IMG/VR virus record: IMGVR_UViG_3300025011_000027
Location: 1-64,000 of that record
DNA length: 64,000 nt
Source: a virus
Strand: one strand, 5' to 3'
The first letter of the stretch is position 1, and each line of letters begins with the position of its first letter. The notes under the pieces were generated by a model that was not told the origin of the DNA, made no database searches, and was given only the letters and a program-made list of their open reading frames with translations. The translations under genes were made by a program, and so were the position numbers. This document shows positions 44,278 through 59,970 of the stretch, one piece after another.

Positions 44278-45126
44278 TTATAGTTGAGCTTGTACTGACT
44301 CCGGAAGTGATTCGACATAAGCTTTTAAGTCAGCTTGATTTCTTACTTTTCCCAGACGAGCTAAGTCCATAGGCTCAATTTCACCTTTATTCAAGGCATC
44401 GGTTACAACATCTTGAATGTCTGATTTGCTCAAGGTTCTTGAACCACCAGTAGCGGCTGCGTCACGCTTTTCCATTACTACGAATCCAGTTGCGGGAGAA
44501 GTAACAGGTTGACTCTTAATTAACTCAATATCAGCGGCAAGAGCAACTTGACCTTTTAAGCTTGCTTCCAAACTCTTTGCAAGAACCATTACGGTTCCTT
44601 GAAGAGCTGCAATATTAGCGTTGGTCTGAACTGACATTGCTTGAACATTTTTAGCAAGGGCTCCTAGTACTTCTGAAGCTTCAAGTACTTCTTCGTACTC
44701 ATCGTTAAAGTTCTTGAAAAGAGGTTCTTCTTCCTCAACAGGTGCATTCTTACTTACAGCACCCTTTGGAGTTACTTTCTTACCATGATTGGTGATAAGT
44801 GTACCTTGAGAACCTTTGTGCGGCTCATCAGGATCCTCATCCTCTTCAGTAACTGGCCCGCCGTTTGCTTTACCGTTCTTGTCGGTACCTTCCTTATTCT
44901 TCTTAACTTTTTCTTCTGGCTCTTCTTCTCCGCCGCCCATTTCATTTTCTTCATCTTTGGGTTTTTCTTCGCCTTCTTCTTCCTCACCAGTTCCCTTGCC
45001 CTTTGCGCTTTTGAACAAGTCTCTGAGGAAGTTAAGACCTTTTCCACTGAATGTAATCGCATCATGTGCGCCACCGGAAGTAGACTTTTTAAGTTCGTTC
45101 ATGTGGTCTTCAAATTCTTTAGTCAA
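44278..45126 (-). CDS. Scaffolding protein
   Basis: Acidic disordered region then coiled coil; many L-x-K-S/N sites; TTG start after AAGGAG. Confidence 0.75.
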   Translation of the reverse strand: MTKEFEDHMNELKKSTSGGAHDAITFSGKGLNFLRDLFKSAKGKGTGEEEEGEEKPKDEENEMGGGEEEPEEKVKKNKEGTDKNGKANGGPVTEEDEDPDEPHKGSQGTLITNHGKKVTPKGAVSKNAPVEEEEPLFKNFNDEYEEVLEASEVLGALAKNVQAMSVQTNANIAALQGTVMVLAKSLEASLKGQVALAADIELIKSQPVTSPATGFVVMEKRDAAATGGSRTLSKSDIQDVVTDALNKGEIEPMDLARLGKVRNQADLKAYVESLPESVQAQL

Positions 45127-45142
45127 TTTGTTACCGCTCCTT

Positions 45143-45907
45143 TTATTTAAGATAGCCCGCAAATTGCAGACGCTTGACCAACCTATAAGCTTCGTTTTCT
45201 TTTACTCCCTTACACTTAACAAGGTGGAAGTAGGCACTCTCTGATCCTTTTCTAAATCGTCCCTTTTCGTCGTAACAATTGTGGTCACATTTACCCCAAA
45301 GAACATCTTCGATTGGAAATCCAGTTAGGGCTTTACTCGCTTCTTCAGTAACATGACCATCATCCAAGTTTTGATTGAGAAGAGGAACTCCGTTACCTGT
45401 AGTTAGTGACTTAGCTAAAAACTCAGCGAACGTATCAGTGTTAGCGGGCTTAGGAGTAAGTGCTACATCGTCCACCCTCGTCTTAGTGAGTCGATTCGCC
45501 TCCGTCTCTAGTATCGCCCCCTCTACTGAAAACCCGTGATTCCTTTCGGGGTCGTCTTTTTCGGCTTGCAGTAGGTCCCAAGCTGCTCTTCCTGGCTCAC
45601 TATCATATAGCTCAACCAAGTGATAAAAAGCAGGACCTCTTATGCCTTTCTTGAGAGTACTTCCATCAGAGACAATTTTAGCTTCTAATGGTTTACCCAG
45701 AACGTATTGCGGTCCTTTTAGATGATCGTAATTCAAATGACCTTTTGTCAAATAAGAACTAAATTCCATTCCAGGAACTACTAATTCTTCGCCATGTTTG
45801 TCTTTAGTTTCAGTACTCGCGACACCCCTAAGCAATCTCTTACGTTCGCCCTTTATTAGCTCTTCGTCACGTTCACAGATAACAAAAAAGCTAAAATCTG
45901 CCGGCAT
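45143..45907 (-). CDS. Prohead maturation protease
   Basis: GVASTE..D..GE, NYDH, GFSVEG, VALT..PAN..T. Confidence 0.88.
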   Translation of the reverse strand: MPADFSFFVICERDEELIKGERKRLLRGVASTETKDKHGEELVVPGMEFSSYLTKGHLNYDHLKGPQYVLGKPLEAKIVSDGSTLKKGIRGPAFYHLVELYDSEPGRAAWDLLQAEKDDPERNHGFSVEGAILETEANRLTKTRVDDVALTPKPANTDTFAEFLAKSLTTGNGVPLLNQNLDDGHVTEEASKALTGFPIEDVLWGKCDHNCYDEKGRFRKGSESAYFHLVKCKGVKENEAYRLVKRLQFAGYLK

Positions 45908-45979: not shown

Positions 45980-46708
45980 TTAAAATAAGAGAAGAGTAAG
46001 GGTATCCGATGCCACGGTACATTTTAATGAGAGAGTGGTTGAGGTACTTGTGATTAGAGTAGTTGTCCCATCAGTGTCAACTGCTGCATTAACTGATCCA
46101 ATATTAAGCGCCGCGGCTACGTCATTTTCAGCACCTGCGGCTATTCTAACTTTAGATGCACTACCAGTGGTACCTGAAGTAATAACATAGACGTTGTTCG
46201 TAAAGGTTACTGTCACCGCAGCGTAAATTCCGCCGAGTGCGCGAATGTCTGTTTGCATTGCGGCAGCTATTCCTGCTCCTGTGGTCAATCCCGCAAGGGT
46301 TAAGGTTACGCTTTGATATGTGGGAGTTGCTGAAACATCGCTATCAACGGCAATCTTGAAGGTCGTTGCAGAACCTGCACTAATATCAGTACTCGGACTT
46401 GCAGCTCCCGTTTCATAACCTGCTGCAACTGTGCCACCATGGAATGGTCTTCCGCCCTTTTGACTATTTACGAGTACATACCCTACTGGAGCCCTGCCTA
46501 ATGCGTGTGTTACTGTATCAGCGGTGTTTGCCGTTGCATTTGTTGCATAAGTAACATATACACCATCAATATCACCTGGTACTGCTCCAGAAACACCTGT
46601 CCCTAAACTTCTTTGAGCCGCTAGTGCTTTCAGTAATGCACCAGCTTTAACTCCCGGAATAGCTACATTAATCGCCCTTACCTGTTTATCAGTGAGTTGA
46701 ACCAACAT
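45980..46708 (-). CDS. Virion decoration/neck protein (Ala/Thr/Gly-rich)
   Basis: H.LGR.P; IAAAMQ..I....VTV......ITS.TTG..S domain. Confidence 0.6.
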   Translation of the reverse strand: MLVQLTDKQVRAINVAIPGVKAGALLKALAAQRSLGTGVSGAVPGDIDGVYVTYATNATANTADTVTHALGRAPVGYVLVNSQKGGRPFHGGTVAAGYETGAASPSTDISAGSATTFKIAVDSDVSATPTYQSVTLTLAGLTTGAGIAAAMQTDIRALGGIYAAVTVTFTNNVYVITSGTTGSASKVRIAAGAENDVAAALNIGSVNAAVDTDGTTTLITSTSTTLSLKCTVASDTLTLLLF

Positions 46709-46878
46709 TGACACCTCCGACCTTTTTAATAAGTATCTTTGAAATTATTTGACTACAAGTTTAGAATAGTTAAGTCTTTCTCCATTAACTGCGCTCATTT
46801 TAGCACCGATCCAGTGATAATACAAGGTATATTAATAGTCTTTCATAAATAATTGTTCCTCATAGACCACCCCCTTCA

Positions 46879-47685
46879 TCATAAAGCACGTTCTACCAAC
46901 TTAAGCAAATTCTCAGTAACCTTCGGGATACAAAAAGAATAAACTGCTTGAATGATAGGATTAGGTTCGATACTAGGATGCCACCAACTTAATGGGTCAC
47001 TACCAACCTGTTTTCCATTAACTACTCTAGGAGTTGAAACTCTTCTAAAGGTCACATAGTTTGTATGGCCTGGATTCCCTGTTTTATACATTCCGTGATA
47101 GACACTGGATTGATGAGTGTATCCCTTGAAGCTAGTTTCAGAAGGAGCGTCCCAAGTGAGTGGAGCCTCCCACTTTATACCCCCAGTTCCGTGTGAAACG
47201 CTCCTAGTAAGCTGCTTAGCTTGTTTGTATACTTCATCAGGCATGCTCATTTTAATTGATATTGCGCTTGCCCCAGAACTTGGTGAAGTTGGAGTATAAT
47301 GTCTGAAAGGGATAGTATTGTACTTCCCTGACCCATCTTTGGTTGTTCTAGCTTTAGGACCGCTAAGTAAGTCTGGTTTCATGTCCCAAGCTTCTTTTCC
47401 ACCTTCAATCTCTAGTACTTCTTTAGCATACCCAACTGGAGATACAATAGCTTTAAATTGGGAAGGGAAATTCAATGAGTCACCAGTCGAGAGTGCTTTT
47501 GCATATTCATCATCAGTAAGACTTTTTGACATTCCAGGAAGTACGTTTCCTTGAACTGCGGAACGCCACACATCACGAACATAAATGGCAGCGTTCTCCA
47601 AACCTCTCTGAAGTAGTTCTCCATTTATTCTAACGTCATTCAGAGCATCACCTAACTGAGATAAATCAACATCTATTTCGTACAT
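46879..47685 (-). CDS. Neck/tail-completion protein
   Basis: E.G...WDMKP.LL.GPK, IPFRH, Y.TFRRVS...S.P.SW.HP. Confidence 0.7.
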   Translation of the reverse strand: MYEIDVDLSQLGDALNDVRINGELLQRGLENAAIYVRDVWRSAVQGNVLPGMSKSLTDDEYAKALSTGDSLNFPSQFKAIVSPVGYAKEVLEIEGGKEAWDMKPDLLSGPKARTTKDGSGKYNTIPFRHYTPTSPSSGASAISIKMSMPDEVYKQAKQLTRSVSHGTGGIKWEAPLTWDAPSETSFKGYTHQSSVYHGMYKTGNPGHTNYVTFRRVSTPRVVNGKQVGSDPLSWWHPSIEPNPIIQAVYSFCIPKVTENLLKLVERAL

Positions 47686-47687
47686 AC

Positions 47688-48374
47688 TTACACCCCATTA
47701 AAAACCACATGTTTTTTTCTTAGCAAGACCTTTTGCCCCAAGTTAGTTCCGCGCTCTCTTCTAGGTTGCGGAGGCGCGAATACTATCCAATCTACGAGTG
47801 CGGAGTACTTAATACTGTATGGTGTACCAGGATCGGGTTCAGAACCTCCTACCACATCCCAGGTTATACTTCTTCCTTCAATCGTAAAATCTGTATCCTT
47901 GACATAATAAGCAACATCACCAGTCACAGGATCAACGGTGATACACTCAGAAACGTCAAGAATAGAATAGTTAGCTGTATCAGTATCCGAAGTATCAGAT
48001 CGTGTTATAAGCTCTCCTTCATAAGGAATACCTTCTTTCCAAGTAAGTTGTATCCTGTCATAATCACTCAAAGTCTGAGGGATATTTGGAGAGAATACAA
48101 GATCACCTGGAGAAGCTATTCCTGATTGAAGCAGTTCTTTATGCTGAGATATGTTGGTTACCATACCAATTATCTTTCCCTTGTCTAACCATACCCACCC
48201 TAATCCATTACAAGCTTTACAATTTGGATTAGCTCTATTAGGATCGAGTACATATCCGGTTTGGGAGAGTGTGCAAGTACATTTCATCCCTTGACTGTAT
48301 TTTACACTCTCTCCGTGTCTCTTAATAAATTCACTTTGTCTATTAACACTTACTTTTGAGTTGTTTAAAGGCAT
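47688..48374 (-). CDS. Head closure (neck) protein
   Basis: C.C...C..C.G.G; YDRI; YS..Y. Confidence 0.7.
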   Translation of the reverse strand: MPLNNSKVSVNRQSEFIKRHGESVKYSQGMKCTCTLSQTGYVLDPNRANPNCKACNGLGWVWLDKGKIIGMVTNISQHKELLQSGIASPGDLVFSPNIPQTLSDYDRIQLTWKEGIPYEGELITRSDTSDTDTANYSILDVSECITVDPVTGDVAYYVKDTDFTIEGRSITWDVVGGSEPDPGTPYSIKYSALVDWIVFAPPQPRRERGTNLGQKVLLRKKHVVFNGV

Positions 48375-48388
48375 ATTTTCTCACTCCC

Positions 48389-49747
48389 TTATATGGTCGT
48401 GTATTGAATACCACAAAAGCGAATTCTCATCTTTGGAACTTCTTTAGCTAACCACTCTTTGTAGCTTGTGAAGTGGCCACCATAAGTTCCATACGTTGCG
48501 CTTGCAGTATACCCCTCTGACTGACTAACACCATCACGACTGGTTGATTGACTTGCGTAACCTGCACGATAAGCAGAACCTGCACTATTCAGTAATTCGT
48601 ACGAGGCTTTTTTTGCGATAGCTTCACGTACAATAGAACGATCGGCTTTCAAGTCTCTCAATCCTACGGTTGCTCGATAATGCCAGAAACTTGGAATAGA
48701 CGCATAATTGTAAAGATACGCCATTACAAATATTCCACCATAAAAGTTCCACATTACTTGAGCTGAAGTGGTAGGAACTAATTCGCATATTCCAGAACGC
48801 TCATTCCACACTAGCCACGTTCTAGGTACTTGAACTGATTTACTCGTATTAAAATATCCTGTAAGTTCTAAGTCCAAAATATTAGGATAGGGAATCTTAA
48901 AGCTCAACCACTTGTTAAAGTTTCTTGGTTTGTAGTACGTCTCAGGAATAGCTACTTCATCGAAGAACAGACCATTCTTGAAACCATCAGTATCAACGAT
49001 AGTTGGCTCAAGTTTGGTTACTATACGCTCCTCCACCCAATTTGTAGCTGCACGTATTTGTCTTATAAATGCGCTATCTTTAAGTCGGCCGTTATCAATA
49101 TAAAGCATTTCTGACTTATCGACTGAAGGAAGTAGGTTAGGACTTACAGTAACCATAATATAATCTTCATTGTCACCGTCGAGTAATAACAATGAATAGG
49201 GAACGTCACCTACTACAGGTACGCCAGTTCCCGCTTTCCAAGACAGCTCTTTAGTAGTCTCAGTATACGTCAGAGTAAACGGGCCTTTATAGTGATTCTC
49301 ACTGACCTCAGTAACAATTACTCCCGTTATCTTTTGGGGCTGGATTCGTGGTTCTAGGATTTCATAGTCGTAGAAAGTAACACCTTTTGTCCATTCTTCT
49401 TTAAGCTCTTTCACAGGAACTATGGAAATGGCAAACATCTTCGACTCCACGACATTATTCTGACTGTCAGTGACTACAATGGTATAATCTCCCTGCTTCG
49501 CACGATAAATTCCAAGTTCGTCCATTGCGTCTCTATTCAAGTCAAACGCCACGTTATACCTCGTTTCAGTTGTCAAGGTAAGATTCTTCACGACTATATT
49601 CCCACCACCGTCAGACCGGCAAAGTGCGGCACTGATAACGTCTGACGGTACCGGGGACGTTACTATAATAGTAGATCTAATTACCGATAAGTCTGAGTGA
49701 TATCGGCTGTACTCTGAAAGGTCGGTAAATACTGAAGATATAGTCAA
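48389..49747 (-). CDS. Head-tail adaptor protein
   Basis: AIAKKA...L...G.A...G.AS.S.S.DGVSQS...TASA.YG.Y. Confidence 0.75.
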   Translation of the reverse strand: MTISSVFTDLSEYSRYHSDLSVIRSTIIVTSPVPSDVISAALCRSDGGGNIVVKNLTLTTETRYNVAFDLNRDAMDELGIYRAKQGDYTIVVTDSQNNVVESKMFAISIVPVKELKEEWTKGVTFYDYEILEPRIQPQKITGVIVTEVSENHYKGPFTLTYTETTKELSWKAGTGVPVVGDVPYSLLLLDGDNEDYIMVTVSPNLLPSVDKSEMLYIDNGRLKDSAFIRQIRAATNWVEERIVTKLEPTIVDTDGFKNGLFFDEVAIPETYYKPRNFNKWLSFKIPYPNILDLELTGYFNTSKSVQVPRTWLVWNERSGICELVPTTSAQVMWNFYGGIFVMAYLYNYASIPSFWHYRATVGLRDLKADRSIVREAIAKKASYELLNSAGSAYRAGYASQSTSRDGVSQSEGYTASATYGTYGGHFTSYKEWLAKEVPKMRIRFCGIQYTTI

Positions 49748-49763
49748 CTTAATGACCTCCCTA

Positions 49764-52115
49764 TTAATGTTCTAGATTATAGTGGATTGTTTCCAGTGTG
49801 TCCGTTTCAGCATCTTCCAATTGCTTCTTAGAATACTCGTTATCAGGATGGGCTAAAATTTTAGTAACAAGGTTGCTATGAGGATCAAAACCTTCATTAT
49901 TAACCGACGATGGTCCTAACTTCTTAGCATAGTTTATAATTTCCATAATAGGCTTACTATTAAGGCTCTCTGCACTGACTTTGTTACCAGGATGAGTTAA
50001 AACTTTTTCAGCTAGCTTGCTTTTTAAAATAAAACCTACATGCTCCTCAGACGTGTTAGCATAATTGGACCACTCTCCTGCCCATTTACCAAGTTGAGAT
50101 AAAGATGCAGTTTCAAGAGTTTGATTATCATATTTATACGGATGATCTTTCTTTATCTTGTCAATAAAACCTTGAGTAAGTTCATCCTTCATCTGTTCAA
50201 GTATAGTTGAGCTTCCTTTAGTAGTTTTTGGAGAGGAGATTACCGATTCTACTGTCTTTGTCTTCTGACTCGTAGTGACAGTAATTTTAGGTTGTTTAGT
50301 ACCTTTAGACTTATTAGGCACATATTCAGCATATAAACTATCTGCGGCTTCTTTCATGCTGCTCATACCCATACTGTAATACTTATCATAAGCTTTACTA
50401 CCATATTCCTTACCAGATAACAATTCTGCCAATTTACGCTTTGTATCAGTATGTGAGGACTTATTATTGTCGTAATCCTTCATAATTGATTTGTAAGCAG
50501 CTTGCTTTACTTTCCACTTCTCTTTGTCAGCTTTTTGTTCTGGAGTTAGTTTCGGAGCTTTCTTTTCAGGTAAGTTCTCCACTTCGTCCAAGTTTACTTC
50601 AGCATACTTTGTTTTCTGCTTTACGGTGAAATGATGTTTACCATCTTTCTTTTTGTATCCTACAATGGTGTATCGTGCTTCCATTGACATTAGAACTTCG
50701 TCCTCACCAGAATGAGAGCTTAAATGTTTAATACTAGCTGCGTATTTACTTCCACCTTCTAAAGTAAATATACAACTATTTCCACCACTTCCGTGACCTG
50801 AAAAACCATTTGCAGTACTCTTGCTACTTGACCAACTACTGGTTCCACGCATATCAATAATAAGATTTGATCCTGTTGACTTTATGAGCTTATCAAGTAA
50901 TTCGTCGTTTACTGATATACCTCTATACAGAGGAGCAGTACCTGCCCATTTAGGCATTACTTTTAAAGCTTTTTCAATGTCAACACTTCTCTTATAATAT
51001 TCTTGGTATGTGTAATTATTAGGATCCATTTTCTTAGTTTGAACTGATCTTATTCCAGAAGAACCAGAACCTGAGAATGAAGTAATAGCACTTGCATAAT
51101 GGTCAGCCGCTTCATCTGAAACACCTAGACCCTTAAAATAGTCAATCTTTTCAGATTTACTTACTTCATAACCTTTATGACCTTCTTTTCCATAACGATG
51201 TGTAACGCCGACTCTGCCTCGTGTCTCTTGACTACCTCCAACCTCTCCAGGTCTTCCAGCGTGATTGAAGTCTCCTGAACCGGGGCCACCCTTTCTTAAT
51301 ACAAGCAACATGTCAGCACCCCTTTTACTTAATATTCTCCCTAGTCCTAGAAATATTGATTTACTAAATTTGGGTTTTATCGACTTAACTTCTTTCAGAT
51401 AAATCATAGTATGAGTTGCCGCAGTTCCTGAGGAAGTTGTCCCTGCAACATCGTCTATCCTAGAAATTTTGAATCTTGACCCAGCGGACATTAAGACTTC
51501 TTCTTCCTCTTTAAATTCACTGATAGACCTAATGCTTGCTCCATGCATGCTTCCCTTTTCTAAAATAAGCATGACCGATCCATGATGACCATATGCTTTT
51601 GGACCTTTACTGCCAAAACTTAGTGCAACCTTTTCTGAGCTTGACCAACTACTTACTCCCAACATGTCGATAGAATCTCCGCTTTTATGTGAGTCTCTTA
51701 GCGACTGAAGATTACTTGGTTCAATTCGTATTCCTCGATAGATGGCTCCTGACTTCCATTTTGGAAGCTTCTTAATGAGTGCTTCCAAGTTCTTAGCATG
51801 ATTAACAAGTCGATCTTCTTCCTCTTTATTGTCTCCCTTATAAGTTCCACTACCAACTTGTCTAATTTCAGTATAGTCAATACCAGTAAAGTCAGTTATT
51901 GCCTTTGCGTATGCTTTAGCATGCTGCTCATCAACTCCAGTTTCTTCCATTATATAAGCAGCTTTTTTAGATAGTCCATTGTATGTTGAAGGATGATGCT
52001 CACTGGTTCTTCGACTTGTTCCACCTTTTCCTTCACTACCACCCACTTGACCAGGTCTCCCTGAATGTCCAAAATCCCCTGATCCTACGCTACCCTTACT
52101 GAGTACTATTTGCAT
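49764..52115 (-). CDS. Tandem ADP-ribosyltransferase protein (two R-S-E ART domains, each with a GSGxFxHxGRPGxVGGS leader; C-terminal repeats)
   Basis: IYRGI/SSWSSS/EEEEVL and LYRGI/SSWSSS/GEDEVL; internal SD plus ATG at 51311. Confidence 0.85.
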   Translation of the reverse strand: MQIVLSKGSVGSGDFGHSGRPGQVGGSEGKGGTSRRTSEHHPSTYNGLSKKAAYIMEETGVDEQHAKAYAKAITDFTGIDYTEIRQVGSGTYKGDNKEEEDRLVNHAKNLEALIKKLPKWKSGAIYRGIRIEPSNLQSLRDSHKSGDSIDMLGVSSWSSSEKVALSFGSKGPKAYGHHGSVMLILEKGSMHGASIRSISEFKEEEEVLMSAGSRFKISRIDDVAGTTSSGTAATHTMIYLKEVKSIKPKFSKSIFLGLGRILSKRGADMLLVLRKGGPGSGDFNHAGRPGEVGGSQETRGRVGVTHRYGKEGHKGYEVSKSEKIDYFKGLGVSDEAADHYASAITSFSGSGSSGIRSVQTKKMDPNNYTYQEYYKRSVDIEKALKVMPKWAGTAPLYRGISVNDELLDKLIKSTGSNLIIDMRGTSSWSSSKSTANGFSGHGSGGNSCIFTLEGGSKYAASIKHLSSHSGEDEVLMSMEARYTIVGYKKKDGKHHFTVKQKTKYAEVNLDEVENLPEKKAPKLTPEQKADKEKWKVKQAAYKSIMKDYDNNKSSHTDTKRKLAELLSGKEYGSKAYDKYYSMGMSSMKEAADSLYAEYVPNKSKGTKQPKITVTTSQKTKTVESVISSPKTTKGSSTILEQMKDELTQGFIDKIKKDHPYKYDNQTLETASLSQLGKWAGEWSNYANTSEEHVGFILKSKLAEKVLTHPGNKVSAESLNSKPIMEIINYAKKLGPSSVNNEGFDPHSNLVTKILAHPDNEYSKKQLEDAETDTLETIHYNLEH

Positions 52116-52221
52116 GCTGTCACTTCCTCCTAATAGCTAAAAGAATGCGCTTATGATCTTTCTCATCAGCTTGGATTTCTTTAAGCTTATCCGCCGATTC
52201 TTCGTCCCCTGCTTCTTCAAA

Positions 52222-53559
52222 CTATTTGATTCTTTCACCATAGTCCTTAATAGCTTTTTCTTCTCCTTTAAGGTCATTGGTTAGAGAGATTCTTTTAGCT
52301 AATAATTCACTTAATCCGATCATGGAATATTCACCTGACTTCTTAAAGGAGGTAACTACGAAACGAGCTTTACCTGATATAAGTACCTCTTCCTGTTCAT
52401 CAAATGCGCTAAAGTCTTTAATGCTTGCTCCTAACCTTGTACCATTTTTAAGAACAAATATAACCTTATTAGCATAATTTCCTTCACTAAACTTCTTAGC
52501 GACATCTAACCCGCTGCTCCAGCTACTAACACCTAACATACTGAAATCTTCTCCAGTATATAGACCATTTAAGTATTTTTTAAGAATTGCATTACTGAAA
52601 GATACTCCCCTGTAAAGTGTGCCTGTCTTACCCCACTTAGGAAGTATTTCGATAGATCTTTCCAAGTCACTACCCATCAATGCATACTTACGTTCTTCCT
52701 CTTTACTATTGAAGTTCTCTGAATTACCCATCTGAGCTGCGCGAATATCAGAGACGCTAGGTCCTGTAAAAAGAAGGATTGTCTCGACCAGCCGCTTAGC
52801 GTACTCAATCTCTACCCCTCTTCTATAAAAGACCCTATACTTTTCATCAAGCTCTCCAAGTTCTCTATGACCTGAGGTACTTGAATTCTTCTTAAGTTGA
52901 TACGCTACCCACTTATCCACTGTCTCTTGCCATATACGATGCGGAGCAAGCTCACCATCCCACTTCTTGTCAACGTCACTGAATACGTGCATCCTATTGT
53001 TCTTATATTTCCCTTCCTCTATCATGCCATCCGAAACTGCAATTAAACGTGGTTTATCGCTCTTACTATCTACCATATACCAGTAACAATTCCAGTCCAT
53101 TCCAATAGACCAAATTTGTGCCCATACTTCTGAACTATGAAGGGCGCCAACAACAAAGTCAGGACCGTTTTCATATGAATCATTTGGTTTATGAGCTTCA
53201 ATAATTAGTTTTTTCACGTATAGACCTTTATCACTATTCTCTCTTTTCCATAAAGCTCTGTATCTACGCTCAGCGGCAATTACTCTTGTGCTATTCAGTC
53301 CCCCGACAACACATGGAACATGCGTATGTCCAGATTCTATAGCTGCAAGTAGTTTGTGGTGTCCATCGTGAAGGTCATAGTCATACCCAACAACTAAAGC
53401 TGGAGTAGGTTTACCTTCTTTAAAGTCTCGAACATATTGAGCAACCTTATCACGATTGATGCTCTTAGTAGTCTGATAAGGAGTATTAATTCTATTCGTT
53501 GGTATGTATATTGGGTTAGGTGCAGTGGTCTTATATGCAAACCTATTAGCATTGCCCAT
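52222..53559 (-). CDS. ParB/Srx-like domain plus ADP-ribosyltransferase; ferritin-like tail interrupted by TAG
   Basis: PALVV...DGHHKL.AA...G...VP; LYRGV/SSWSS/EQEEVL; frame continues past TAG to TGA at 52120. Confidence 0.82.
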   Translation of the reverse strand: MGNANRFAYKTTAPNPIYIPTNRINTPYQTTKSINRDKVAQYVRDFKEGKPTPALVVGYDYDLHDGHHKLLAAIESGHTHVPCVVGGLNSTRVIAAERRYRALWKRENSDKGLYVKKLIIEAHKPNDSYENGPDFVVGALHSSEVWAQIWSIGMDWNCYWYMVDSKSDKPRLIAVSDGMIEEGKYKNNRMHVFSDVDKKWDGELAPHRIWQETVDKWVAYQLKKNSSTSGHRELGELDEKYRVFYRRGVEIEYAKRLVETILLFTGPSVSDIRAAQMGNSENFNSKEEERKYALMGSDLERSIEILPKWGKTGTLYRGVSFSNAILKKYLNGLYTGEDFSMLGVSSWSSGLDVAKKFSEGNYANKVIFVLKNGTRLGASIKDFSAFDEQEEVLISGKARFVVTSFKKSGEYSMIGLSELLAKRISLTNDLKGEEKAIKDYGERIK

Positions 53560-53593
53560 TAAAGTTTCACCTACTTATAATTATTAGCCGAAT

Positions 53594-53623
53594 AAAAAAG
53601 ACTAGCGCATAATGGCTAGCCTT
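53594..53623 (-). terminator. Terminator after kinase gene
   Basis: aaggctagc-cattatgc-gctagtc-tttttt. Confidence 0.6.
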
Positions 53624-53637
53624 AGTTTAGCACGGAT

Positions 53638-54819
53638 TTACTTTTTTAGCACTACTTTAATGTCCTTGTCGGTCTGAGCGTTCTTCTTTACTTTTTGGGT
53701 GCCTCGACGTTGCTCTGTAAGCTTCGCAAAGAAGCTCTTGAACTCATTCCCGGCATTGTTTTTCCGCTCAATTGCTTGAGTGTAGAATGATTCAGGTAAC
53801 TTTAGGGAATCTGCATAGGGCTTAAGCATTTTACGATATTCTTGGTCAGGGATAGCTTTGAGCTTATCAAGCGCACTATCTACCGCGGTAAGGTCAAGAT
53901 CAACTTTTCCCTTTGCGTACTCACGATACATGGTATTATAAAGAGGTTCTTGCTCTCCATACTGAGCGTTAGGATGATAGTCCAAACTCATATGATGAGA
54001 ACCTTTGTCCTTTGAATATCTGAAAGCTTGCTCTTTATCGACACCTAATACCTTTCCTTGTTCAGTCAATATGAAGTTTCCTGCATGAGAATCGAAGTTC
54101 CCAACTGTCCAATCCAGTACGTGTTCGCGCTGAATATCTTGAATCTGTTGAGGTGTAAGTGACTTCCAGTTAAGCTCTTTCAAATTACCCATTACACCTG
54201 GCACAAGAGGTTGAACTGATCCTAGTTTGCCTCCCTTGATTCTATCAGTATGAACTGGAATATGATCACCGTATTTGAAGATTCGAGACGCTATATTTGA
54301 AACCGCTGTCTGAACATGCGCCCTAAATTCTTCTCTTTGTCCGCCCTTTGACTCCGCAGGTTTAAATATATATTGGCGACCTTTATCGTCAGTAAAGATA
54401 TCCTTCTTCCCTGCTCCCCCTAGATGAGAACCGCTGCCTTGATTCTTCATTTCTGATATCTTTGGAAGAGTCTCTTTTGCTATCTGACCATCTTTAGTCA
54501 AATAGATATGCTGCCCGTTCATGGTTACCCAACGCCCGCCTGGATACTTCTTGTCCATACTTTCTCCAAATGACTTTTGTAACGTATGTCTTACTGCCCA
54601 CTGTGCGGCTTGCTCACTGGTCCAACGAACGGTCGGAGTGTTATCACCAAGCTCATTCTTTTTCAGTCCTTCAAAGACTTGAGTTACAAGTCCGTAAAAA
54701 GCTGCTCCTTCTTCTCCTTGATCTCCGTATTCACTTTTGACTATTTGCTTTGCTCTTGACCAGTGGTTCTCATTATTAAGATCCGCTAGACTTCTCTGGA
54801 TTTGATCGACTTCACTCAT
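53638..54819 (-). CDS. HipA/PI3K-PI4K-like atypical kinase with short N-terminal head-associated domains
   Basis: LGGAG Gly loop, YIFKP, GSVQP, LDW.VGNFDSHAGNF catalytic loop, GVDKEQAF. Confidence 0.82.
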   Translation of the reverse strand: MSEVDQIQRSLADLNNENHWSRAKQIVKSEYGDQGEEGAAFYGLVTQVFEGLKKNELGDNTPTVRWTSEQAAQWAVRHTLQKSFGESMDKKYPGGRWVTMNGQHIYLTKDGQIAKETLPKISEMKNQGSGSHLGGAGKKDIFTDDKGRQYIFKPAESKGGQREEFRAHVQTAVSNIASRIFKYGDHIPVHTDRIKGGKLGSVQPLVPGVMGNLKELNWKSLTPQQIQDIQREHVLDWTVGNFDSHAGNFILTEQGKVLGVDKEQAFRYSKDKGSHHMSLDYHPNAQYGEQEPLYNTMYREYAKGKVDLDLTAVDSALDKLKAIPDQEYRKMLKPYADSLKLPESFYTQAIERKNNAGNEFKSFFAKLTEQRRGTQKVKKNAQTDKDIKVVLKK

Positions 54820-54878
54820 TAACTTATCCCCCTCTTATTAATGTAATGCTATAATATTACTACATAATGAGAGGACTG

Positions 54879-55103
54879 TCAAATTACTGACAGTCCCTTT
54901 GGTTTGAAGTAATGCTTTTCAAGTACCCCTTTATAATTCGTGATCTCGACGGCGTCCAATTTACCTTCGCGCTCTAACTTTCTTAAATCCTGACGAGTAA
55001 TGCCAGCAGCTCTTTTTAGAATAGCTGCGCGAACTGGTTTACCTGTTTCTCCTTCAAAGTGATCACAAATGGCATGAATATTAGCTAACCAGATAGGCTT
55101 CAT
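54879..55103 (-). CDS. Small winged-helix-like hypothetical protein
   Basis: GITRQDLRKLEREGKL. Confidence 0.5.
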   Translation of the reverse strand: MKPIWLANIHAICDHFEGETGKPVRAAILKRAAGITRQDLRKLEREGKLDAVEITNYKGVLEKHYFKPKGLSVI

Positions 55104-55258
55104 TTGTTCATACCCCAGTTAGATCGTGTGCCGCATTTTGGACAAGTAGCTGAATACTTATCATTCTCTACTGAGAAAACTTCTCCGCACTTCTTACAAG
55201 TTACTTCTTGGTTCTCGCCCTTGCATAGTACCCTAGTTGGTCTTTGTTCTTCTTGCAT
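55100..55258 (-). CDS. Small zinc-ribbon protein (52 aa, not in ORF track)
   Basis: CKKCG...CPKCG; GGAGG RBS; ATGA coupling. Confidence 0.55.
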   Translation of the reverse strand: MQEEQRPTRVLCKGENQEVTCKKCGEVFSVENDKYSATCPKCGTRSNWGMNK

Positions 55259-55516
55259 TTACTTTTCCTCCATTAATTCATATTTTATAGACATTTCGCG
55301 GATCTCCATGAACTTTAGTTCTTTGTCGTATCCGTCGAATTCTTCCCAAAACTTTTTGGCCTGTTTCCAACTATCAAATCTTTTTGCTTTATTAAGCTTA
55401 ATAGTACAGTCGGTATGATGTTTAATGGTAAGATGATTCTTTGCAATGTACTTAAACTCTTGACCACGTTGAACGATGATAACAAATTTACCTTCAACTT
55501 TTGCTTCAGTTTGCAT
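55259..55516 (-). CDS. Hypothetical protein
   Basis: Operon order, RBS. Confidence 0.55.
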   Translation of the reverse strand: MQTEAKVEGKFVIIVQRGQEFKYIAKNHLTIKHHTDCTIKLNKAKRFDSWKQAKKFWEEFDGYDKELKFMEIREMSIKYELMEEK

Positions 55517-55531
55517 GGTTTTAGTCCCCTT

Positions 55532-55765
55532 TTAGTTTTTAGTTAGTTTTTCATACTCCGCAACCGTCATATCCTCTTCAGTTACGTCCTCAGCTCTTAA
55601 GATAAGATAGTTTCCCTCATGGATTACGGTATATTCATTTGCCATAATACTGAATTTGAGTGCGCTAAACTTCTGACCAATTTTATCTTTATACCAGTTT
55701 CCATACAAGTGAGCCTTAGAAGCTCTAACGACAGTTAGCACCCGTACTCCTTTTCTTAGACTCAT
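55532..55765 (-). CDS. Hypothetical protein (SH3-like)
   Basis: WYKDKIGQKF motif. Confidence 0.55.
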   Translation of the reverse strand: MSLRKGVRVLTVVRASKAHLYGNWYKDKIGQKFSALKFSIMANEYTVIHEGNYLILRAEDVTEEDMTVAEYEKLTKN

Positions 55766-55766
55766 G

Positions 55767-56156
55767 TTAGTATACCCTTTCTTCTGACAGGTTTACGGCG
55801 TGTACATTCTCTAAGGTATAGAAACAAGGTTGCTGATCATGAGCTTTAACCCATTCGTCGAAGACTTCTTGGAATTTACGGGTAAGCTCTGCTTCTGCTT
55901 CGTGGGAGATACTATCCAAATACCCATCTGAAGATTCTCCGCATTCTTCTCCAGCGTCACATCTTAGCTGCTCAAGGATAGTTTCAGCATCAATAGTTGG
56001 CCTGAACCATTTAACTTGACCAACATAGATATCGCGTCTCTCACCACAATCAAATGCGTCCCGAAGTGCTTCCTTCTTAGTTTCACAGGTTCCATTACCC
56101 CAAACACCGTCTTCAGTTGCATTCCAAGACCACAGTCCTTCTCTAATCTCTGACAT
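55767..56156 (-). CDS. Conserved acidic phage hypothetical protein
   Basis: W....CETK.EA...IYVGQ...IDAE.ILE...P.FY. Confidence 0.7.
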   Translation of the reverse strand: MSEIREGLWSWNATEDGVWGNGTCETKKEALRDAFDCGERRDIYVGQVKWFRPTIDAETILEQLRCDAGEECGESSDGYLDSISHEAEAELTRKFQEVFDEWVKAHDQQPCFYTLENVHAVNLSEERVY

Positions 56157-56187
56157 TAAAAAACACTCCTTTCATCATACATACTAG

Positions 56188-56217
56188 ATATATAACAAAA
56201 GAAGCGTATTTTTTAAG
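56188..56217 (-). promoter_or_regulatory. Phage promoter (copy 7)
   Basis: CTTAAAAA-N15-TATATAT. Confidence 0.75.
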
Positions 56218-57403
56218 TGACTGTTCCATATTCTCTCATATACTGTATGGGGTAACAATGACAGTGCGGGTGGGTGGAAGCGTTTGGTAACCATCCTCCT
56301 TCTTTGCCGATCTTCGAAGCAGTTAGTCCTACATTCATCCCGCCTGTTCTTGCGACATTATGAAGAATCTCACTAAGCTTGAATATCTTTGGTGTTCCAT
56401 CTGGATTTAGGTATAGCTTCTTACACGATGCACACGCGATGGGCTGAACGTGATAATATACTTCAATCTCGTCAGCGTCTCCCCCACCTTCGTGTTGTAT
56501 GCTTGCTAGTTTGCCCAAGTTAGTGGAATACCTGATTTCAGTTTGAGCTATTCTATCCCAATCCCTACTTATGTCTTCTTGCTTAAATCGTGACCTTAAC
56601 TCTGAACTAAGCTCTTGCCATCCTTTGACGCTTCTATCTGACTCTAGGATACTCATTTCTTCTCTGCTTAGTCCTTCTTCATTGTATTTTGTGATCTTAA
56701 GGTCTCCAGAGAAATAGGACTGAATAATAAGGTTTAAGTTCTTCTTTTCATTGGCTAATATAATGTCCTCTGCTTTGTCGGCAAGCTTTCTTCCAAACCC
56801 TGTTACAAACCTTGCCGCGTTCTGCTTTGCTTGCATTAGTATTAGCTCATCTACGCGGTTCAGAGGTATCTTAGCGACTAGTTTAACCATGTCCGCATAC
56901 GTATCTCCGTTGGCTAGTACAAACGATAGTCTACCAGCTACATACGACTGATTAATCCAGGTCTCCAAGTCCTGCTCAGGAGGTACTATGCCGTATTTAT
57001 TCCACTGACGTTGCAGCGAACTTGGTACTTTATAGCCTAATCCTATCGCGGATCTGAAATGAGATTCGATTAATAATCTAAGTTCTGCAACTTGTGCTTC
57101 AGTCAATGTAGGAGGTACTCCAGACCGTTTACTGAGAATGTTCTTTTTAAACGTGCTTTTCCCTTTAAACCACTTCTCTATGTTCTGAACGAGTGTAGTC
57201 ATTAGAGAACGTGTCGTTATATTGAGCTTCTTCTCTATCTGTCTGAGATACCTCTCTGGTATTTCTTCTCCTACATGGTTATGCTCTTTCTTCGATAGAA
57301 GCTCTACCACTTTACTAGTTAAGTGTTCATTCGATATATAGGAGGAGAGTGCTTTTGCAAGTTCTTCATCTGTGATGTTCTCACGAGTTACCCTTACTTG
57401 CAT
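56213..57403 (-). CDS. MuF (SPP1 gp7-like) minor head protein
   Basis: RDWDRIAQTE...N.G, AC.SC..LY, HPHCHC; follows portal. Confidence 0.88.
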   Translation of the reverse strand: MQVRVTRENITDEELAKALSSYISNEHLTSKVVELLSKKEHNHVGEEIPERYLRQIEKKLNITTRSLMTTLVQNIEKWFKGKSTFKKNILSKRSGVPPTLTEAQVAELRLLIESHFRSAIGLGYKVPSSLQRQWNKYGIVPPEQDLETWINQSYVAGRLSFVLANGDTYADMVKLVAKIPLNRVDELILMQAKQNAARFVTGFGRKLADKAEDIILANEKKNLNLIIQSYFSGDLKITKYNEEGLSREEMSILESDRSVKGWQELSSELRSRFKQEDISRDWDRIAQTEIRYSTNLGKLASIQHEGGGDADEIEVYYHVQPIACASCKKLYLNPDGTPKIFKLSEILHNVARTGGMNVGLTASKIGKEGGWLPNASTHPHCHCYPIQYMREYGTVT

Positions 57404-57554: not shown

Positions 57555-59225
57555 TCATTCATCGTCTAGTATCTCAAACAGTAGTATCTTAGCACCTTCA
57601 TTCTTCTTCAGTGCGTTATCACTTGGTTTCTTTTCTGGAGTTGCAGCTTTCTTTTTGTCTTGAGCAGTAGGCTTAGAGTCTTTCCCCTCTTTGCCTACCG
57701 CCTTCGACGCACCATCTTTTCCTTGTCCCTTAGAAGACTTAGGATCACCGCCTCCCGCGTCTTGCTCGGCCGTAGCCTGTTCTTGAGCTAGTGACGCTGA
57801 CATTGCTGACATATACACGGTGCTATCTGGAACGTCTCCGAACTCTAGATCTCCTTCTAATCCCATGGAGCGTCGAGATTCGTTAAACGTCATACCAGCT
57901 TTAAGTTGTTTACTAATCAATTCTATTCGTCGATCTTCGTCGGCAAGGTCTGTATCATATATCATAACTAAATCGTCATAACGAGGTTTAATGACTACTT
58001 TAGTTAACCAACTAGCATGTCCAAATATAATGCTCTCTAATCCCTCTTGCTTAGCGTCAGAAAGGATTTCATCTTCATTAGCTCCATTACCTATGCTCAT
58101 CCCACCGCTGGATCCTTTGTCAATTGTAAAGTTAACTATTGACGGGTGCGCTCTGAATGCTGCGGTCTTTAACTGAATAATAATCCTCAAGAATTCAGCA
58201 AATTGAACGTCTTTTGGAAGCTCTCTGATCTTAATTAACTCAGCTTTGAAATTCTCATCCGCAGGGATAACTGGCACACGTTGATAGTCTCCAGAACCAC
58301 TTTGGTCAAGTACTTGTCTTTGAAATGCTCCAAGTCCGATAGGGTCAACGTCACCATATAGAAATAGCATACTTTCAGGACTGTCTTGATTGAATAGTCC
58401 ATCATTATATGCCCAAGCATTCAACCACGTTTGTGTAGCCATAATAGACTGCTCTAGTGCCGACCCTGCTCCATATGCCCATCGGTCAATCTCGACACTT
58501 GGGTTGGTAATGTTTACGCTCATTTCTTCAGCGGTCCAGCATGCTACAGGTAAAGCGTCAATCACTTGAACATATGCGGCGTTAGTAACATCCAATCCAT
58601 AGGTCTTAAATATTCCTTCATACGATGCGCTTCTGGTGGTTTTGTTCTTCTTAGCAAAGTCCATCAGAACTTCGATAACAGGACGAATCGTAGTACCGTC
58701 CACAAGATGATAAGAGCAAGGTGCTCCAGTACGATCTTTAGTAATGACCATAGCCTTTCGATCATATGTAAGCTCTTGGTCTGTGCATACCGCGGCGAAG
58801 TCGATAAACCCATTTGGATGAATCATAGGATTGACGTTCTCTATGATCTTCTCAACCTCTTTACAACGGCGTATAACGTCCTCTGTGGGGCTATAGTTAG
58901 GGTCGGCGTGATTCTCGTTCACCACTCTATATCCGACCTGCTTACCAGGCACTACGACCTTCTTAGAGAGGTATTTAACTTGTGCTACTCTTGCCATAAT
59001 GATGATCTTATCTATTAGCGATTTCTCGCGTGATAATCTTAGTAAGTCGAACTGAATAGAGCTATTTGGTTTGTGGTATCCTGTTCCCGCCATGTCTCGT
59101 GCTTGTGAATACTGAGAGAAGAACTTACCTCTAGCTGCTTGCTTTTGAGCTTCTTCTTCCATTTTCTTGGCGAGCGTTACCCGCTCCGGAACGATTAGCC
59201 CATTGTATTGTGCCCACTCAGCCAT
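57555..59225 (-). CDS. Portal protein
   Basis: D.LTYD, VDGTTI, YVQVI, YG.S.LE, YN...F.Q, D.QF, TFNE.R. Confidence 0.9.
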   Translation of the reverse strand: MAEWAQYNGLIVPERVTLAKKMEEEAQKQAARGKFFSQYSQARDMAGTGYHKPNSSIQFDLLRLSREKSLIDKIIIMARVAQVKYLSKKVVVPGKQVGYRVVNENHADPNYSPTEDVIRRCKEVEKIIENVNPMIHPNGFIDFAAVCTDQELTYDRKAMVITKDRTGAPCSYHLVDGTTIRPVIEVLMDFAKKNKTTRSASYEGIFKTYGLDVTNAAYVQVIDALPVACWTAEEMSVNITNPSVEIDRWAYGAGSALEQSIMATQTWLNAWAYNDGLFNQDSPESMLFLYGDVDPIGLGAFQRQVLDQSGSGDYQRVPVIPADENFKAELIKIRELPKDVQFAEFLRIIIQLKTAAFRAHPSIVNFTIDKGSSGGMSIGNGANEDEILSDAKQEGLESIIFGHASWLTKVVIKPRYDDLVMIYDTDLADEDRRIELISKQLKAGMTFNESRRSMGLEGDLEFGDVPDSTVYMSAMSASLAQEQATAEQDAGGGDPKSSKGQGKDGASKAVGKEGKDSKPTAQDKKKAATPEKKPSDNALKKNEGAKILLFEILDDE

Positions 59226-59280
59226 AACGCTACGCCTCCTAAATTAAATATGTCTTATAAATGATATCAGAACTATGTAT

Positions 59281-59308
59281 AGTATAGCGGGTTTTCCCCA
59301 AGAGTCAA
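59281..59308 (-). promoter_or_regulatory. SigmaA-like promoter upstream of portal
   Basis: TTGACT-N16-TATACT, immediately after the ncRNA terminator. Confidence 0.45.
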
Positions 59309-59309
59309 C

Positions 59310-59351
59310 AAAAAGAGAACGCGGAGAGGGACCAACCAATCGCGTTCTCTT
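59310..59351 (-). terminator. Terminator closing the large ncRNA
   Basis: agagaacgcg-N18-cgcgttctct-tttt. Confidence 0.65.
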
Positions 59352-59968
59352 ATTTGGTATGATGTGTTGTTGAAGGCATCATACTATTTGTGCCAGAGCA
59401 GGTCGCCTACTACCCCTCTGACTTGCATCATACGTTTTGCTTCCTAAAAATACACTATATGTTGAGGGATAAAGAGTGCATAGACCTTCACTGTCGGGAA
59501 TTCTGCGGAAACTCCCACCCAATGTCTCTCAAAGTCTCTACACGAACTGAAAGATACATGCTAGTCCAACATTCAGTATACCACCTTCGTAGGTCTGATA
59601 GTCAGAGCTATGCAACATGATAACACACCACCTTATGATTCAATTAGTGTAAGCAATGCCACCTATACTTACGTACTCCCTCGAAGTGTCTTTATCACAC
59701 TTCTACACTAATGCTTTTCAGCATCCCAAAATTAACTATTTTTAAGAGATAAGCGAACCTGGATTCAGTTCCCAATTAGATTGGGCACCTCCATAGAGTT
59801 CGCTTCTATTTCTCTTGAATGCTTCTTACCCTCCCAGAATAAGCATTCGACACACTGCCCTCACTTTCAGATTCTTACTTGCAGTGCTTCCCTAGTTACT
59901 TAATCCTGGCTGTTAGTTCATCAGCGTACTCATTTACTCGCGGGCAATATTATCCGCCGCCACCAAGA
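59352..59968 (-). ncRNA. Large ornate structured RNA, ROOL-like (ROOL/GOLLD class)
   Basis: About 620 nt with no credible ORF and more than ten nested helices on the minus strand (gcactgc/gcagtgt, gaatgctt/aagcattc, aagcgaac/gttcgctt, gatgct-GAAA-agcatt, ttagtgtag/ttacactaa, agacct/aggtct, atgttg/caacat, gtcagag/ctctggc). Family name is from recalled motifs and size; boundaries approximate. Confidence 0.65.
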
Positions 59969-59970
59969 TG

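Follow-up and report, generated by a model that had tools for sequence, protein, structure and literature searches.

Three consecutive minus-strand genes at 49764-54819 of the phage genome IMGVR_UViG_3300025011_000027 (IMG/VR) encode three ADP-ribosyltransferase (ART) domains, a ParB-like domain and an atypical protein-kinase-like enzyme. They lie inside the head module, between the portal and MuF-like genes and the genes for maturation protease, scaffold and major capsid protein (MCP). The window analysed here is the first 64 kb of this 91,966-bp virus record, which CheckV rates as complete, and all coordinates refer to it. The system is a split variant of known polyvalent, MuF-linked effectors, and on balance we favour reading the three genes as polyvalent effectors of the tailed-phage type, delivered by the virion, whose domains are split over separate genes. 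From comparison with homologous sequences, it is likely that the three proteins are packaged in the capsid and enter the host together with the DNA. The strongest support for this role as cargo is comparative and indirect, and comes from fusions of homologous domains to head proteins in other phages. An earlier note, made from the window alone, had proposed a modular system in which stand-alone enzymes are loaded into the prohead, cut into single domains and delivered with the DNA; its observation was partly confirmed and its cargo interpretation is partly supported.

Enzyme domains and their fusions in other phages

All three minus-strand open reading frames (ORFs) were confirmed, at 49764-52115 (783 aa, ART-ART protein), 52222-53559 (445 aa, ParB-ART protein) and 53638-54819 (393 aa, kinase). 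Pfam reports ART domains above cut-offs at residues 66-228 and 426-503 of the 783-aa protein and residues 299-418 of the 445-aa protein, with both PF03496 (37.6 bits) and PF01129 (~35 bits) exceeding their cut-offs. The full domains, all on the minus strand, span residues 31-245 of the 783-aa protein for ART1 (51381-52025; PF03496 E 1.9e-9), residues 322-532 of the same chain for ART2 (50520-51152; PF01129 E 1e-8) and residues 239-439 of the 445-aa protein for ART3 (52243-52845; PF01129 E 1.4e-8). They are paralogues with 31-36% identity, and phrog_16619, annotated ‘minor head protein’, matches both ART2 (E 7e-25) and ART3. ART1 and ART2 have an ExE active site, while ART3 is a QxE variant, visible as D-E-Q-E-E-V-L. 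When unit 1, the first ART unit of the 783-aa chain, is aligned with 50 relatives from the databases (51 sequences), invariance is limited to the start Met, R127, S156 and E206, the last three of which form the R-S-E triad of the unit. The AlphaFold2 (AF2) model of unit 1 has a predicted local distance difference test (pLDDT) score of 84, with a confident core at residues 31-245 (pLDDT >90). It matches Vis (Z 16.2) and the Tre1-type ART toxin of a type VI secretion system (T6SS; 6drh, Z 15.1), and also HopU1, an iota-like toxin, C2-I, VIP2 and C3 ARTs, the whole range being Z 16-13 and the C3, VIP2 and iota matches lying at Z 13-14.6. The three R-S-E ART domains that the earlier note placed between the MuF-like/portal and protease/capsid genes are confirmed, and they belong to the C3/VIP2/iota/Alt-like group.

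The 445-aa protein carries in addition a ParB-like domain at residues 4-110 (53230-53550, minus strand), which was missing from the earlier domain list. It matches the PHROG ParB-like nuclease families phrog_26754 (E 4e-26) and phrog_26588 (E 3e-23); Pfam ParB_N is not reported, and the domain has D-G-H-H-K where an Arg is usual. A Lys-rich helical region completes the 783-aa protein (residues 533-783; 49767-50519, minus strand) and has no family match. ESM Atlas returned no usable match for this region or for residues 100-245 of the ParB-ART protein, and NCBIfam gave nothing useful. As a side observation, translation of the 33 in-frame codons past the TAG stop of the ParB-ART gene (52123-52221, minus strand) shows that reading through the TAG would create a ferritin/rubrerythrin-like helix pair (52123-52290, minus strand; Pfam Ferritin E 3.4e-5, 24.2 bits against a cut-off of 24.5). 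The extension ends at a TGA 4 nt ahead of the ART-ART start codon. Possible explanations of the in-frame TAG are a nonsense mutation, readthrough and chance.

The kinase (53638-54819, minus strand) consists of a helical N-region (residues 1-95; 54535-54819) and a core (residues 104-368; 53716-54510). By sequence it belongs neither to PF00454 nor to PF07804: PI3_PI4_kinase (PF00454) gives only a sub-threshold match (E 0.033, 14.5 bits against a cut-off of 27.1), and HipA_C (PF07804) matches weakly and in a single distant homologue. The AF2 model (pLDDT 84) matches PI4K-II alpha (Z 14.8 over 236 residues), CtkA (13.0) and HipA (10.2) in VIA, with further matches to Fam20-type kinases and MavQ, and to PI3K/VPS34 by Foldseek. 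The family conserves a Gly-rich loop G-G-x-G, K153, a D-S-H-x-G-N loop and D261-K-E-Q; G134, G135, K153 and D261 are invariant in the alignment, and H245 and N248 nearly so. Because the model matches these folds and the catalytic motifs are conserved, the earlier designation as a HipA/PI3K-like kinase is right at the level of fold and motifs, although Pfam scores do not bear it out, and we class the protein as an atypical kinase of the PI3K/PI4K/HipA-like group. Homologues P0004-P0014 are 55-78% identical to it. A segment of the N-region, K-Y-P-G-G-R-W-V-T-M-N-G, is conserved among close homologues and is not part of the MuF-kinase fusions described below.

Scanning IMG/VR with the kinase alignment yielded 125 loci, 80 of which were examined. 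In nearly all of these, and in at least 70 IMG/VR loci, the kinase domain forms the middle of an ORF of ~1140 aa. A MuF domain (Phage_Mu_F PF04233 or Phage_min_cap2 PF06152) lies immediately N-terminal of the kinase in seven of eight such ORFs, and Rho_N lies C-terminal of it in six of the eight. Relatives of the ARTs are likewise found fused to MuF (P0036, P0041) or to portal (P0051), and combined with NUDIX and further ARTs. Since the effector domains are fused to MuF or portal elsewhere, the three genes fall within a known theme of presumably injected effectors, here in unfused form. The description of the three proteins as stand-alone is right for this phage: no MuF match was found in any of them. 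The ~1140-aa phage protein itself carries no name (L002-L081, e.g. L017:4003-7422); it comprises MuF, a PI4K/HipA-like kinase, Rho_N/SAP and ~500 residues without a family match.

A conserved leader peptide and a lysine motif

Each ART unit of the 783-aa protein is headed by M-x-[IL]-V-L-x-K followed by G-x-x-G-S-G-D-F-x-H-x-G-R-P-G-x-V-G-G-S. Leader 1 (residues 1-27; 52035-52115, minus strand) reads M-Q-I-V-L-S-K/G-S-V-G-S-G-D-F-G-H-S-G-R-P-G-Q-V-G-G-S, the slash marking the junction here and below, and is predicted to be disordered (pLDDT <50). Leader 2, M-L-L-V-L-R-K/G-G-P-G-S-G-D-F-N-H-A-G-R-P-G-E-V-G-G-S, follows a disordered linker with three K sites (K252, K264 and K275); linker and leader 2 together occupy 51231-51380 (minus strand), and residues 253-267 have a pLDDT <50. 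Both belong to what we define here as the GRPG-leader family, x/G-G-x-G-S-G-[NH]-[FH]-G-H-x-G-R-P-G-x-V-G-G-S opening a module or a protein; D-F replaces N-F in both, and copy 1 has G-S-V for G-G-P. Both ART units bear a conserved leader, predicted to be disordered, after a Lys site of the type found in the scaffold, and this leader may have a capsid-targeting role.

An exhaustive phmmer search with unit 1 returned 1269 relatives. In dozens of them, 800-2500 aa long, query residues ~5-35 match four to nine separate stretches each, so that copies of the GRPG peptide are spaced at intervals of 150-300 residues. Among the modules that they separate are ParB_N, Zeta toxin, 2H, PI3_PI4-like kinase, GNAT, ART, DRAT and MuF. 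In all, the peptide of ~22 residues acts as a module delimiter in hundreds of proteins from uncultured phages. A back-translated DNA pattern of the leader occurs in at least 119 IMG/VR stretches. Among 75 database proteins retrieved with the motif, nearly all metagenomic and none with an informative name, 22 carry a portal (15) or MuF (7) domain in the same chain. Many other loci are arrays of separate genes with one leader at each start, and stand-alone leader-ART proteins of ~250 aa are common. One such locus (G001; L205:5418-16749) has five consecutive genes for proteins of 600-830 aa directly after MuF, each with one leader near the N-terminus and Asp as the junction residue. Stand-alone, leader-bearing gene arrays next to MuF are thus present beyond the window. 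Among the variable C-termini of the five G001 proteins are Zeta toxin, glutamine deamidase and CdiA_C-like domains, and the locus is laid out like a polymorphic-toxin array. Proximity of MuF to leader loci (a MuF-profile match in 22 of 80) was not clearly above that in random short phage stretches, and for this reason we used only fusions to MuF or portal within the same chain.

The leader core is almost invariant across 155 junctions in 74 loci. The residue preceding G-G varies among loci (K, R, D, L, N, E and others) and is highly uniform within them, being identical in 85% of within-locus pairs compared with 16% of between-locus pairs. Upstream of it, positions P2-P5 agree in only 12-31% of within-locus pairs. 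Identical residues in different leader copies use the same codon in 31-44% of cases, and the codons of leaders 1 and 2 differ. Because the codons are scrambled, the uniformity of the leader reflects selection at the level of the peptide, and homogenisation of the DNA or a recombination word was rejected as a cause of the uniform junctions. The residue preceding the cut (P1) of a phage-specific protease would be expected to look like this, specific to the genome and bordering a conserved peptide that is disordered. In the window this residue is Lys, in a scaffold-type context. The same junction residue is enriched in other head genes (as hydrophobic-x-X-[GSNA]) in the window (K) and in genome G004 (R, 14 against 4.4 expected).

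The leader is the part of this system most likely to be new. No paper mentioning GSGNFGH, GHAGRPG or GRPGQVGGS was found in the literature searched, which does not make it certain that the peptide is new. The motif is absent from gp030 of cyanophage PSS2, a Zeta-toxin protein annotated ‘head morphogenesis’. Matches to the leader DNA pattern in 596 Gb of genomes were mostly chance matches in high-GC actinobacteria, with ~4 of 80 examined loci true. Two further observations concern related proteins. Proteins of 1600-2100 aa with portal, NUDIX and mostly Zeta toxin in their precomputed Pfam annotation (P0196, P0200, P0203, P0208-P0214, P0229) belong to clusters of up to 67 members; four of five inspected have a single GRPG junction at approximately residue 740-760, and P0203 has none. 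The ART relatives P0040, P0042, P0069 and P0145 carry other N-terminal leaders, N-P-Y-H-D-x-x-G-R-F and E-H-P-R-x-x-x-G-K-F, in the GRPG position, and these may be variants, together with GRPG, of one H...G-[RK]-[PF] signal. The literature searched held no paper naming the NPYHD or EHPRD leaders.

The earlier note had also pointed to a Lys pattern running through the head proteins. Across all genes of the 92-kb genome, [LVF]-x-K-[SGNR] was counted and compared with shuffles that preserve composition. The non-head proteome gave 64 matches where 67.3 were expected, and we therefore consider the shuffle null sound. The head block has 43 matches against 17.3 expected. Scaffold (11 vs 1.3) and protease (6 vs 1.1) are the two most enriched genes of the genome, followed at ranks five and six by the ParB-ART (5 vs 2.0) and ART-ART (7 vs 3.5) genes; the kinase has 3 vs 1.6. 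Pooled, the three cargo proteins have 15 sites against 7.0 expected (Poisson 0.006); all eight sites quoted in the earlier note are present, and seven further matches were found. The capsid N-terminus has strict matches at residues 8 and 15 and L-V-K/A at 38. Portal (1 vs 1.6) and MuF-like protein (2 vs 1.4), to which the earlier note had also extended the pattern, are not enriched.

A stricter form, [ILV]-L-[SNR]-K-[RG]-[SG], was defined post hoc, after the data had been seen. It has five matches in 27,573 residues, all in three proteins: the scaffold N-terminus (A-I-L-N-K-R-S-G, residues 3-10), residues 89-94 of the MuF-like protein (N-I-L-S-K-R-S-G, residues 88-95; 57119-57142) and residues 4-9, 261-266 and 272-277 of the ART-ART protein. 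The convincing ART-ART sites, K7, K252, K264 and K275, all fall in segments that AF2 predicts to be disordered. The enrichment is replicated in the cultured Bacillus phage SP-10 (L343:4557-5981), where hydrophobic-x-K-[GSNAR] occurs 9 times in the scaffold (1.9 expected) and 8 times in the protease (1.8 expected). Lys is the top residue-type outlier in these genes and is not an outlier in any of eight other SP-10 virion genes. The Lys motif is a real signal of the head module, and from these counts it looks like the recognition code of the protease-scaffold lineage shared by the window and SP-10. No accessible literature source was found for cleavage after Lys in herelleviral capsids, which the earlier note had taken as established.

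Proposed virion delivery, its alternatives and related systems

Under the explanation that we favour, the three effectors would be made together with the head proteins and would enter the prohead, the ART units by way of their disordered N-terminal leader, a short hydrophobic strand followed by K/G-x-x-G-S-G-D-F-x-H-x-G-R-P-G-x-V-G-G-S. The SPO1-type prohead protease would then trim them after Lys at hydrophobic-L-x-K/[GRS], sites of which are abundant in the scaffold, and the products would leave the capsid together with the DNA. Once in the cell, the two ExE ARTs may ADP-ribosylate host proteins, the ParB-linked QxE ART may act on another target, possibly one associated with nucleic acid, and the PI4K/HipA-like kinase may phosphorylate host components, for takeover or counter-defence. 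More tentatively, and with somewhat less than even confidence, we suggest that the ~22-residue peptide G-G-x-G-S-G-N-F-G-H-x-G-R-P-G-x-V-G-G-S is an undescribed portable cargo tag of uncultured tailed phages for prohead loading and for release by the phage’s own maturation protease, with the preceding genome-specific residue as P1. Such a tag would serve for enzyme modules of any type, both those in long chains behind portal or MuF and those encoded by separate genes, as in the window.

Several results weigh against this explanation. The kinase and ParB-ART proteins have no GRPG leader. Cargo K sites are only ~2-fold enriched, and they are weak as delimiters of cargo domains, the role the earlier note had given them: four to five of the seven additional matches fall inside ART cores, and sites within cores include 187, 371 and 412. 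For six of the 15 cargo sites, a domain border defined by independent means is no more than 15 residues away, which is more than the residue share predicts (p 0.03) but not significantly more than the Lys share predicts (p 0.17), so that the proposed excess of the motif at borders over a Lys-rich background did not hold up. The match between junction residue and other head genes failed in G001 (D), G002 (E), G003 (N) and G005 (L), and since it is absent in four of six genomes we do not claim it as general. A tblastn search with the leader against cultured phages gave no match, although the low-complexity filter may hide one. In ten leader-bearing contigs neither phrog_1028 nor Peptidase_S78 nor a homologue of the window protease was found, a result made uninformative by controls that were empty as well. 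Finally, a promoter-like site (TTGACA-17-TAATAT, 54854-54882) just upstream of the kinase ATG and a terminator-like hairpin with a 9-bp stem (53598-53623) just past its stop, both found on the minus strand by consensus scan, bracket the kinase gene (53598-54882), and because of them the gene is possibly a separate transcription unit. The counts of such sites in the region are not above those in shuffles, making this weak evidence.

Phage enzymes of this kind can work within the infected cell in which they are made, as T4 ModA/ModB and the T7 protein kinase do, and the three enzymes might do the same as moron-like cassettes in the head block, with the leader serving regulation, localisation or partner binding. 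The sigma-70-like promoter and terminator-like hairpin directly flanking the kinase gene would suit such cassettes, as would the absence of the leader from two of the three proteins and the position of the block within a ~11.6-kb stretch between portal and protease, genes that are adjacent in SP-10. We nevertheless think this unlikely, given that many phages have kinase or ART domains homologous to these in one chain with MuF or portal, that the leader is common to portal- and MuF-containing chains, that the strict Lys site is otherwise confined to scaffold and MuF-like protein, and that promoter and terminator counts do not exceed those in shuffles. It is also conceivable that the proteins are packaged and stay intact, with GRPG acting as a docking or tethering motif for scaffold, portal, MuF or the inner capsid wall and the junction residue as a co-evolving epitope. 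A protease site would need nothing near the length of a ~22-residue core or its degree of conservation, many proteins have the leader at their very N-terminus, with nothing there to separate, and the junction residue is unmatched in most of the genomes compared; polyvalent proteins of the N4 vRNAP type, moreover, are packaged unprocessed (PMC5512222). Against docking, the residue before the motif is here a Lys in the hydrophobic-L-x-K context that fills the scaffold, and uncut portal-enzyme chains would be hard to build into a dodecamer. Capsid proteases (HK97, T4, phiKZ), furthermore, typically have at P1 residues of the kind seen at these junctions, such as K, R, D and E. We consider a pure docking role quite improbable.

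Least probable, and in our judgement very much so, is that the three proteins are polymorphic toxins of a MuF system, directed at competing bacteria or serving superinfection exclusion, and that small ORFs nearby encode the matching immunity. A model for such toxins is available (PMC5576092), relatives in the G001 array end in Zeta toxin, glutamine deamidase and CdiA_C-like domains, ART1 is similar to a T6SS ART toxin whose structure was determined together with its immunity protein (6drh), and four small ORFs adjoin the kinase gene. None of the three proteins is fused to MuF, however, and no small ORF follows the ART genes. MuF toxins have been found only in temperate phages and prophages (PMC5576092), whereas the window phage has a distantly SPO1-like head module; lysogeny genes were not searched for in this record. 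The resemblance to the MuF-associated ART toxin of Enterococcus EFV (Jamet et al. 2017, PMC5576092) extends to an R-S-E ART associated with MuF and proposed to be delivered on DNA injection, and the ART relatives P0036 and P0041 are themselves MuF-ART fusions. The window differs in that its MuF-like gene is separate and in that its small ORFs lie upstream of the kinase gene, no downstream immunity-like ORF being evident.

A close parallel to the favoured explanation is provided by polyvalent proteins (Iyer, Burroughs, Anand, de Souza and Aravind 2017; PMC5512222), in which ART, protein-kinase and ParB-type domains are encoded beside virion genes and are predicted to reach the host along with the injected DNA. 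These have 2-15 domains per chain, with embedded zincin peptidases proposed for processing, and stand-alone versions and clusters of small domain-bearing ORFs were also noted. The text of that paper contains neither the string GRPG nor the words ‘linker’ and ‘glycine’. Like them, the window genes lie on one strand among virion genes, between portal/MuF-like and protease/scaffold/MCP, and relatives of their domains sit in true multi-domain chains. Unlike them, the set is split over three genes with one or two enzyme domains each: the ParB-ART and ART-ART chains have two domains, and the kinase stands alone. The ARTs are of the R-S-E (C3/VIP2/Alt-like) clade rather than the typical H-Y-D clade, and the kinase matches no Pfam kinase model except, weakly, PI3_PI4.

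T4 Alt is also an R-S-E ART (PMC5512222). The two ART units of the 783-aa protein resemble Alt and the internal proteins IPI-III in being unfused to head proteins and in having a short N-terminal leader. In T4 a short N-terminal capsid-targeting sequence takes Alt and IPI-III into the prohead; the prohead protease gp21 trims them at hydrophobic-x-Glu, and they are injected. The window leader is different in sequence, much longer and more conserved, its predicted P1 is Lys, and the protease and capsid lineages are unrelated. In phiKZ-like giant phages such as SPN3US, the prohead protease (gp245) processes numerous proteins of the head interior at a short motif, and these proteins enter the cell by ejection (PMC7411985, PMC10052503). 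That system has proteomic proof, uses another motif and belongs to another phage group.

Injected proteins act before phage gene expression and decide the first minutes of infection, in transcription takeover and in escape from restriction and other defences. To our knowledge, outside T4, P1, N4 and the phiKZ group such proteins are known almost only from domain fusions. The present locus adds a kinase family that occurs widely among the MuF proteins of uncultured phages and lies below Pfam, PHROG and NCBIfam thresholds. It also adds a conserved leader, or delimiter, linking stand-alone effector genes to portal- and MuF-linked polyproteins, and a Lys motif specific to the head module whose replication in a cultured Bacillus phage offers concrete testable sites; those of SP-10 are a directly testable prediction of protease specificity. 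Should the leader be a loading and cutting signal, injected effectors of metagenomic phages would become predictable from sequence, and the tag would provide a handle for loading foreign proteins into phage capsids.

The surrounding head module

On the minus strand the genes run in the order portal, MuF-like, four small ORFs, the three effector genes, four virion-type genes (45980-49747), protease, scaffold and capsid. PHROG confirms the earlier identification of portal (57555-59225; five PHROG portal families, best E 7e-11), prohead maturation protease (45143-45907; phrog_1028 E 2.5e-26) and MCP (42783-44231; phrog_752 E 1.6e-47). The scaffolding protein (44278-45162) is assigned from its position between protease and MCP and from its 11 K-motif sites. 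Identification of the MuF gene (56213-57403) stands on the CxxC...HPxCxC signature of the MuF domain, which is visible in the sequence, but profile support is weak: no Pfam match was found, phrog_4728 matches with E 0.004, and hhalign to the MuF parts of the kinase polyproteins gives 78% and E 1.7e-5. Of the four small ORFs between the MuF-like and kinase genes (54879-56156; 129, 77, 85 and 74 aa), the 129-aa ORF matches phrog_1672 (unknown function), and the 77-, 85- and 74-aa ORFs have no significant family match.

Megablast of the locus against cultured phages found no DNA relative, and an IMG/VR scan seeded with the portal found no close relatives. No Rfam family was found in 40000-64000; this includes the non-coding gap upstream of the portal (59226-59970), which has none at gathering thresholds. 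The MCP is at most ~25% identical to those of SP-10, CP-51 and other SPO1-like Bacillus phages. Only the protease PHROG and the Lys motif are common to the window and these phages, so that neither head-gene closeness nor gene order places the window phage in the Herelleviridae. In SP-10, a cultured herellevirus (L343), the portal, protease, scaffold and MCP genes are contiguous; in the window, portal and protease are set apart by ~11.6 kb of additional genes. This extra stretch (45980-57403) includes matches to phrog_772 ‘tail fiber’ and phrog_1004 ‘virion structural’, products that the SP-10 annotation puts after the capsid gene.

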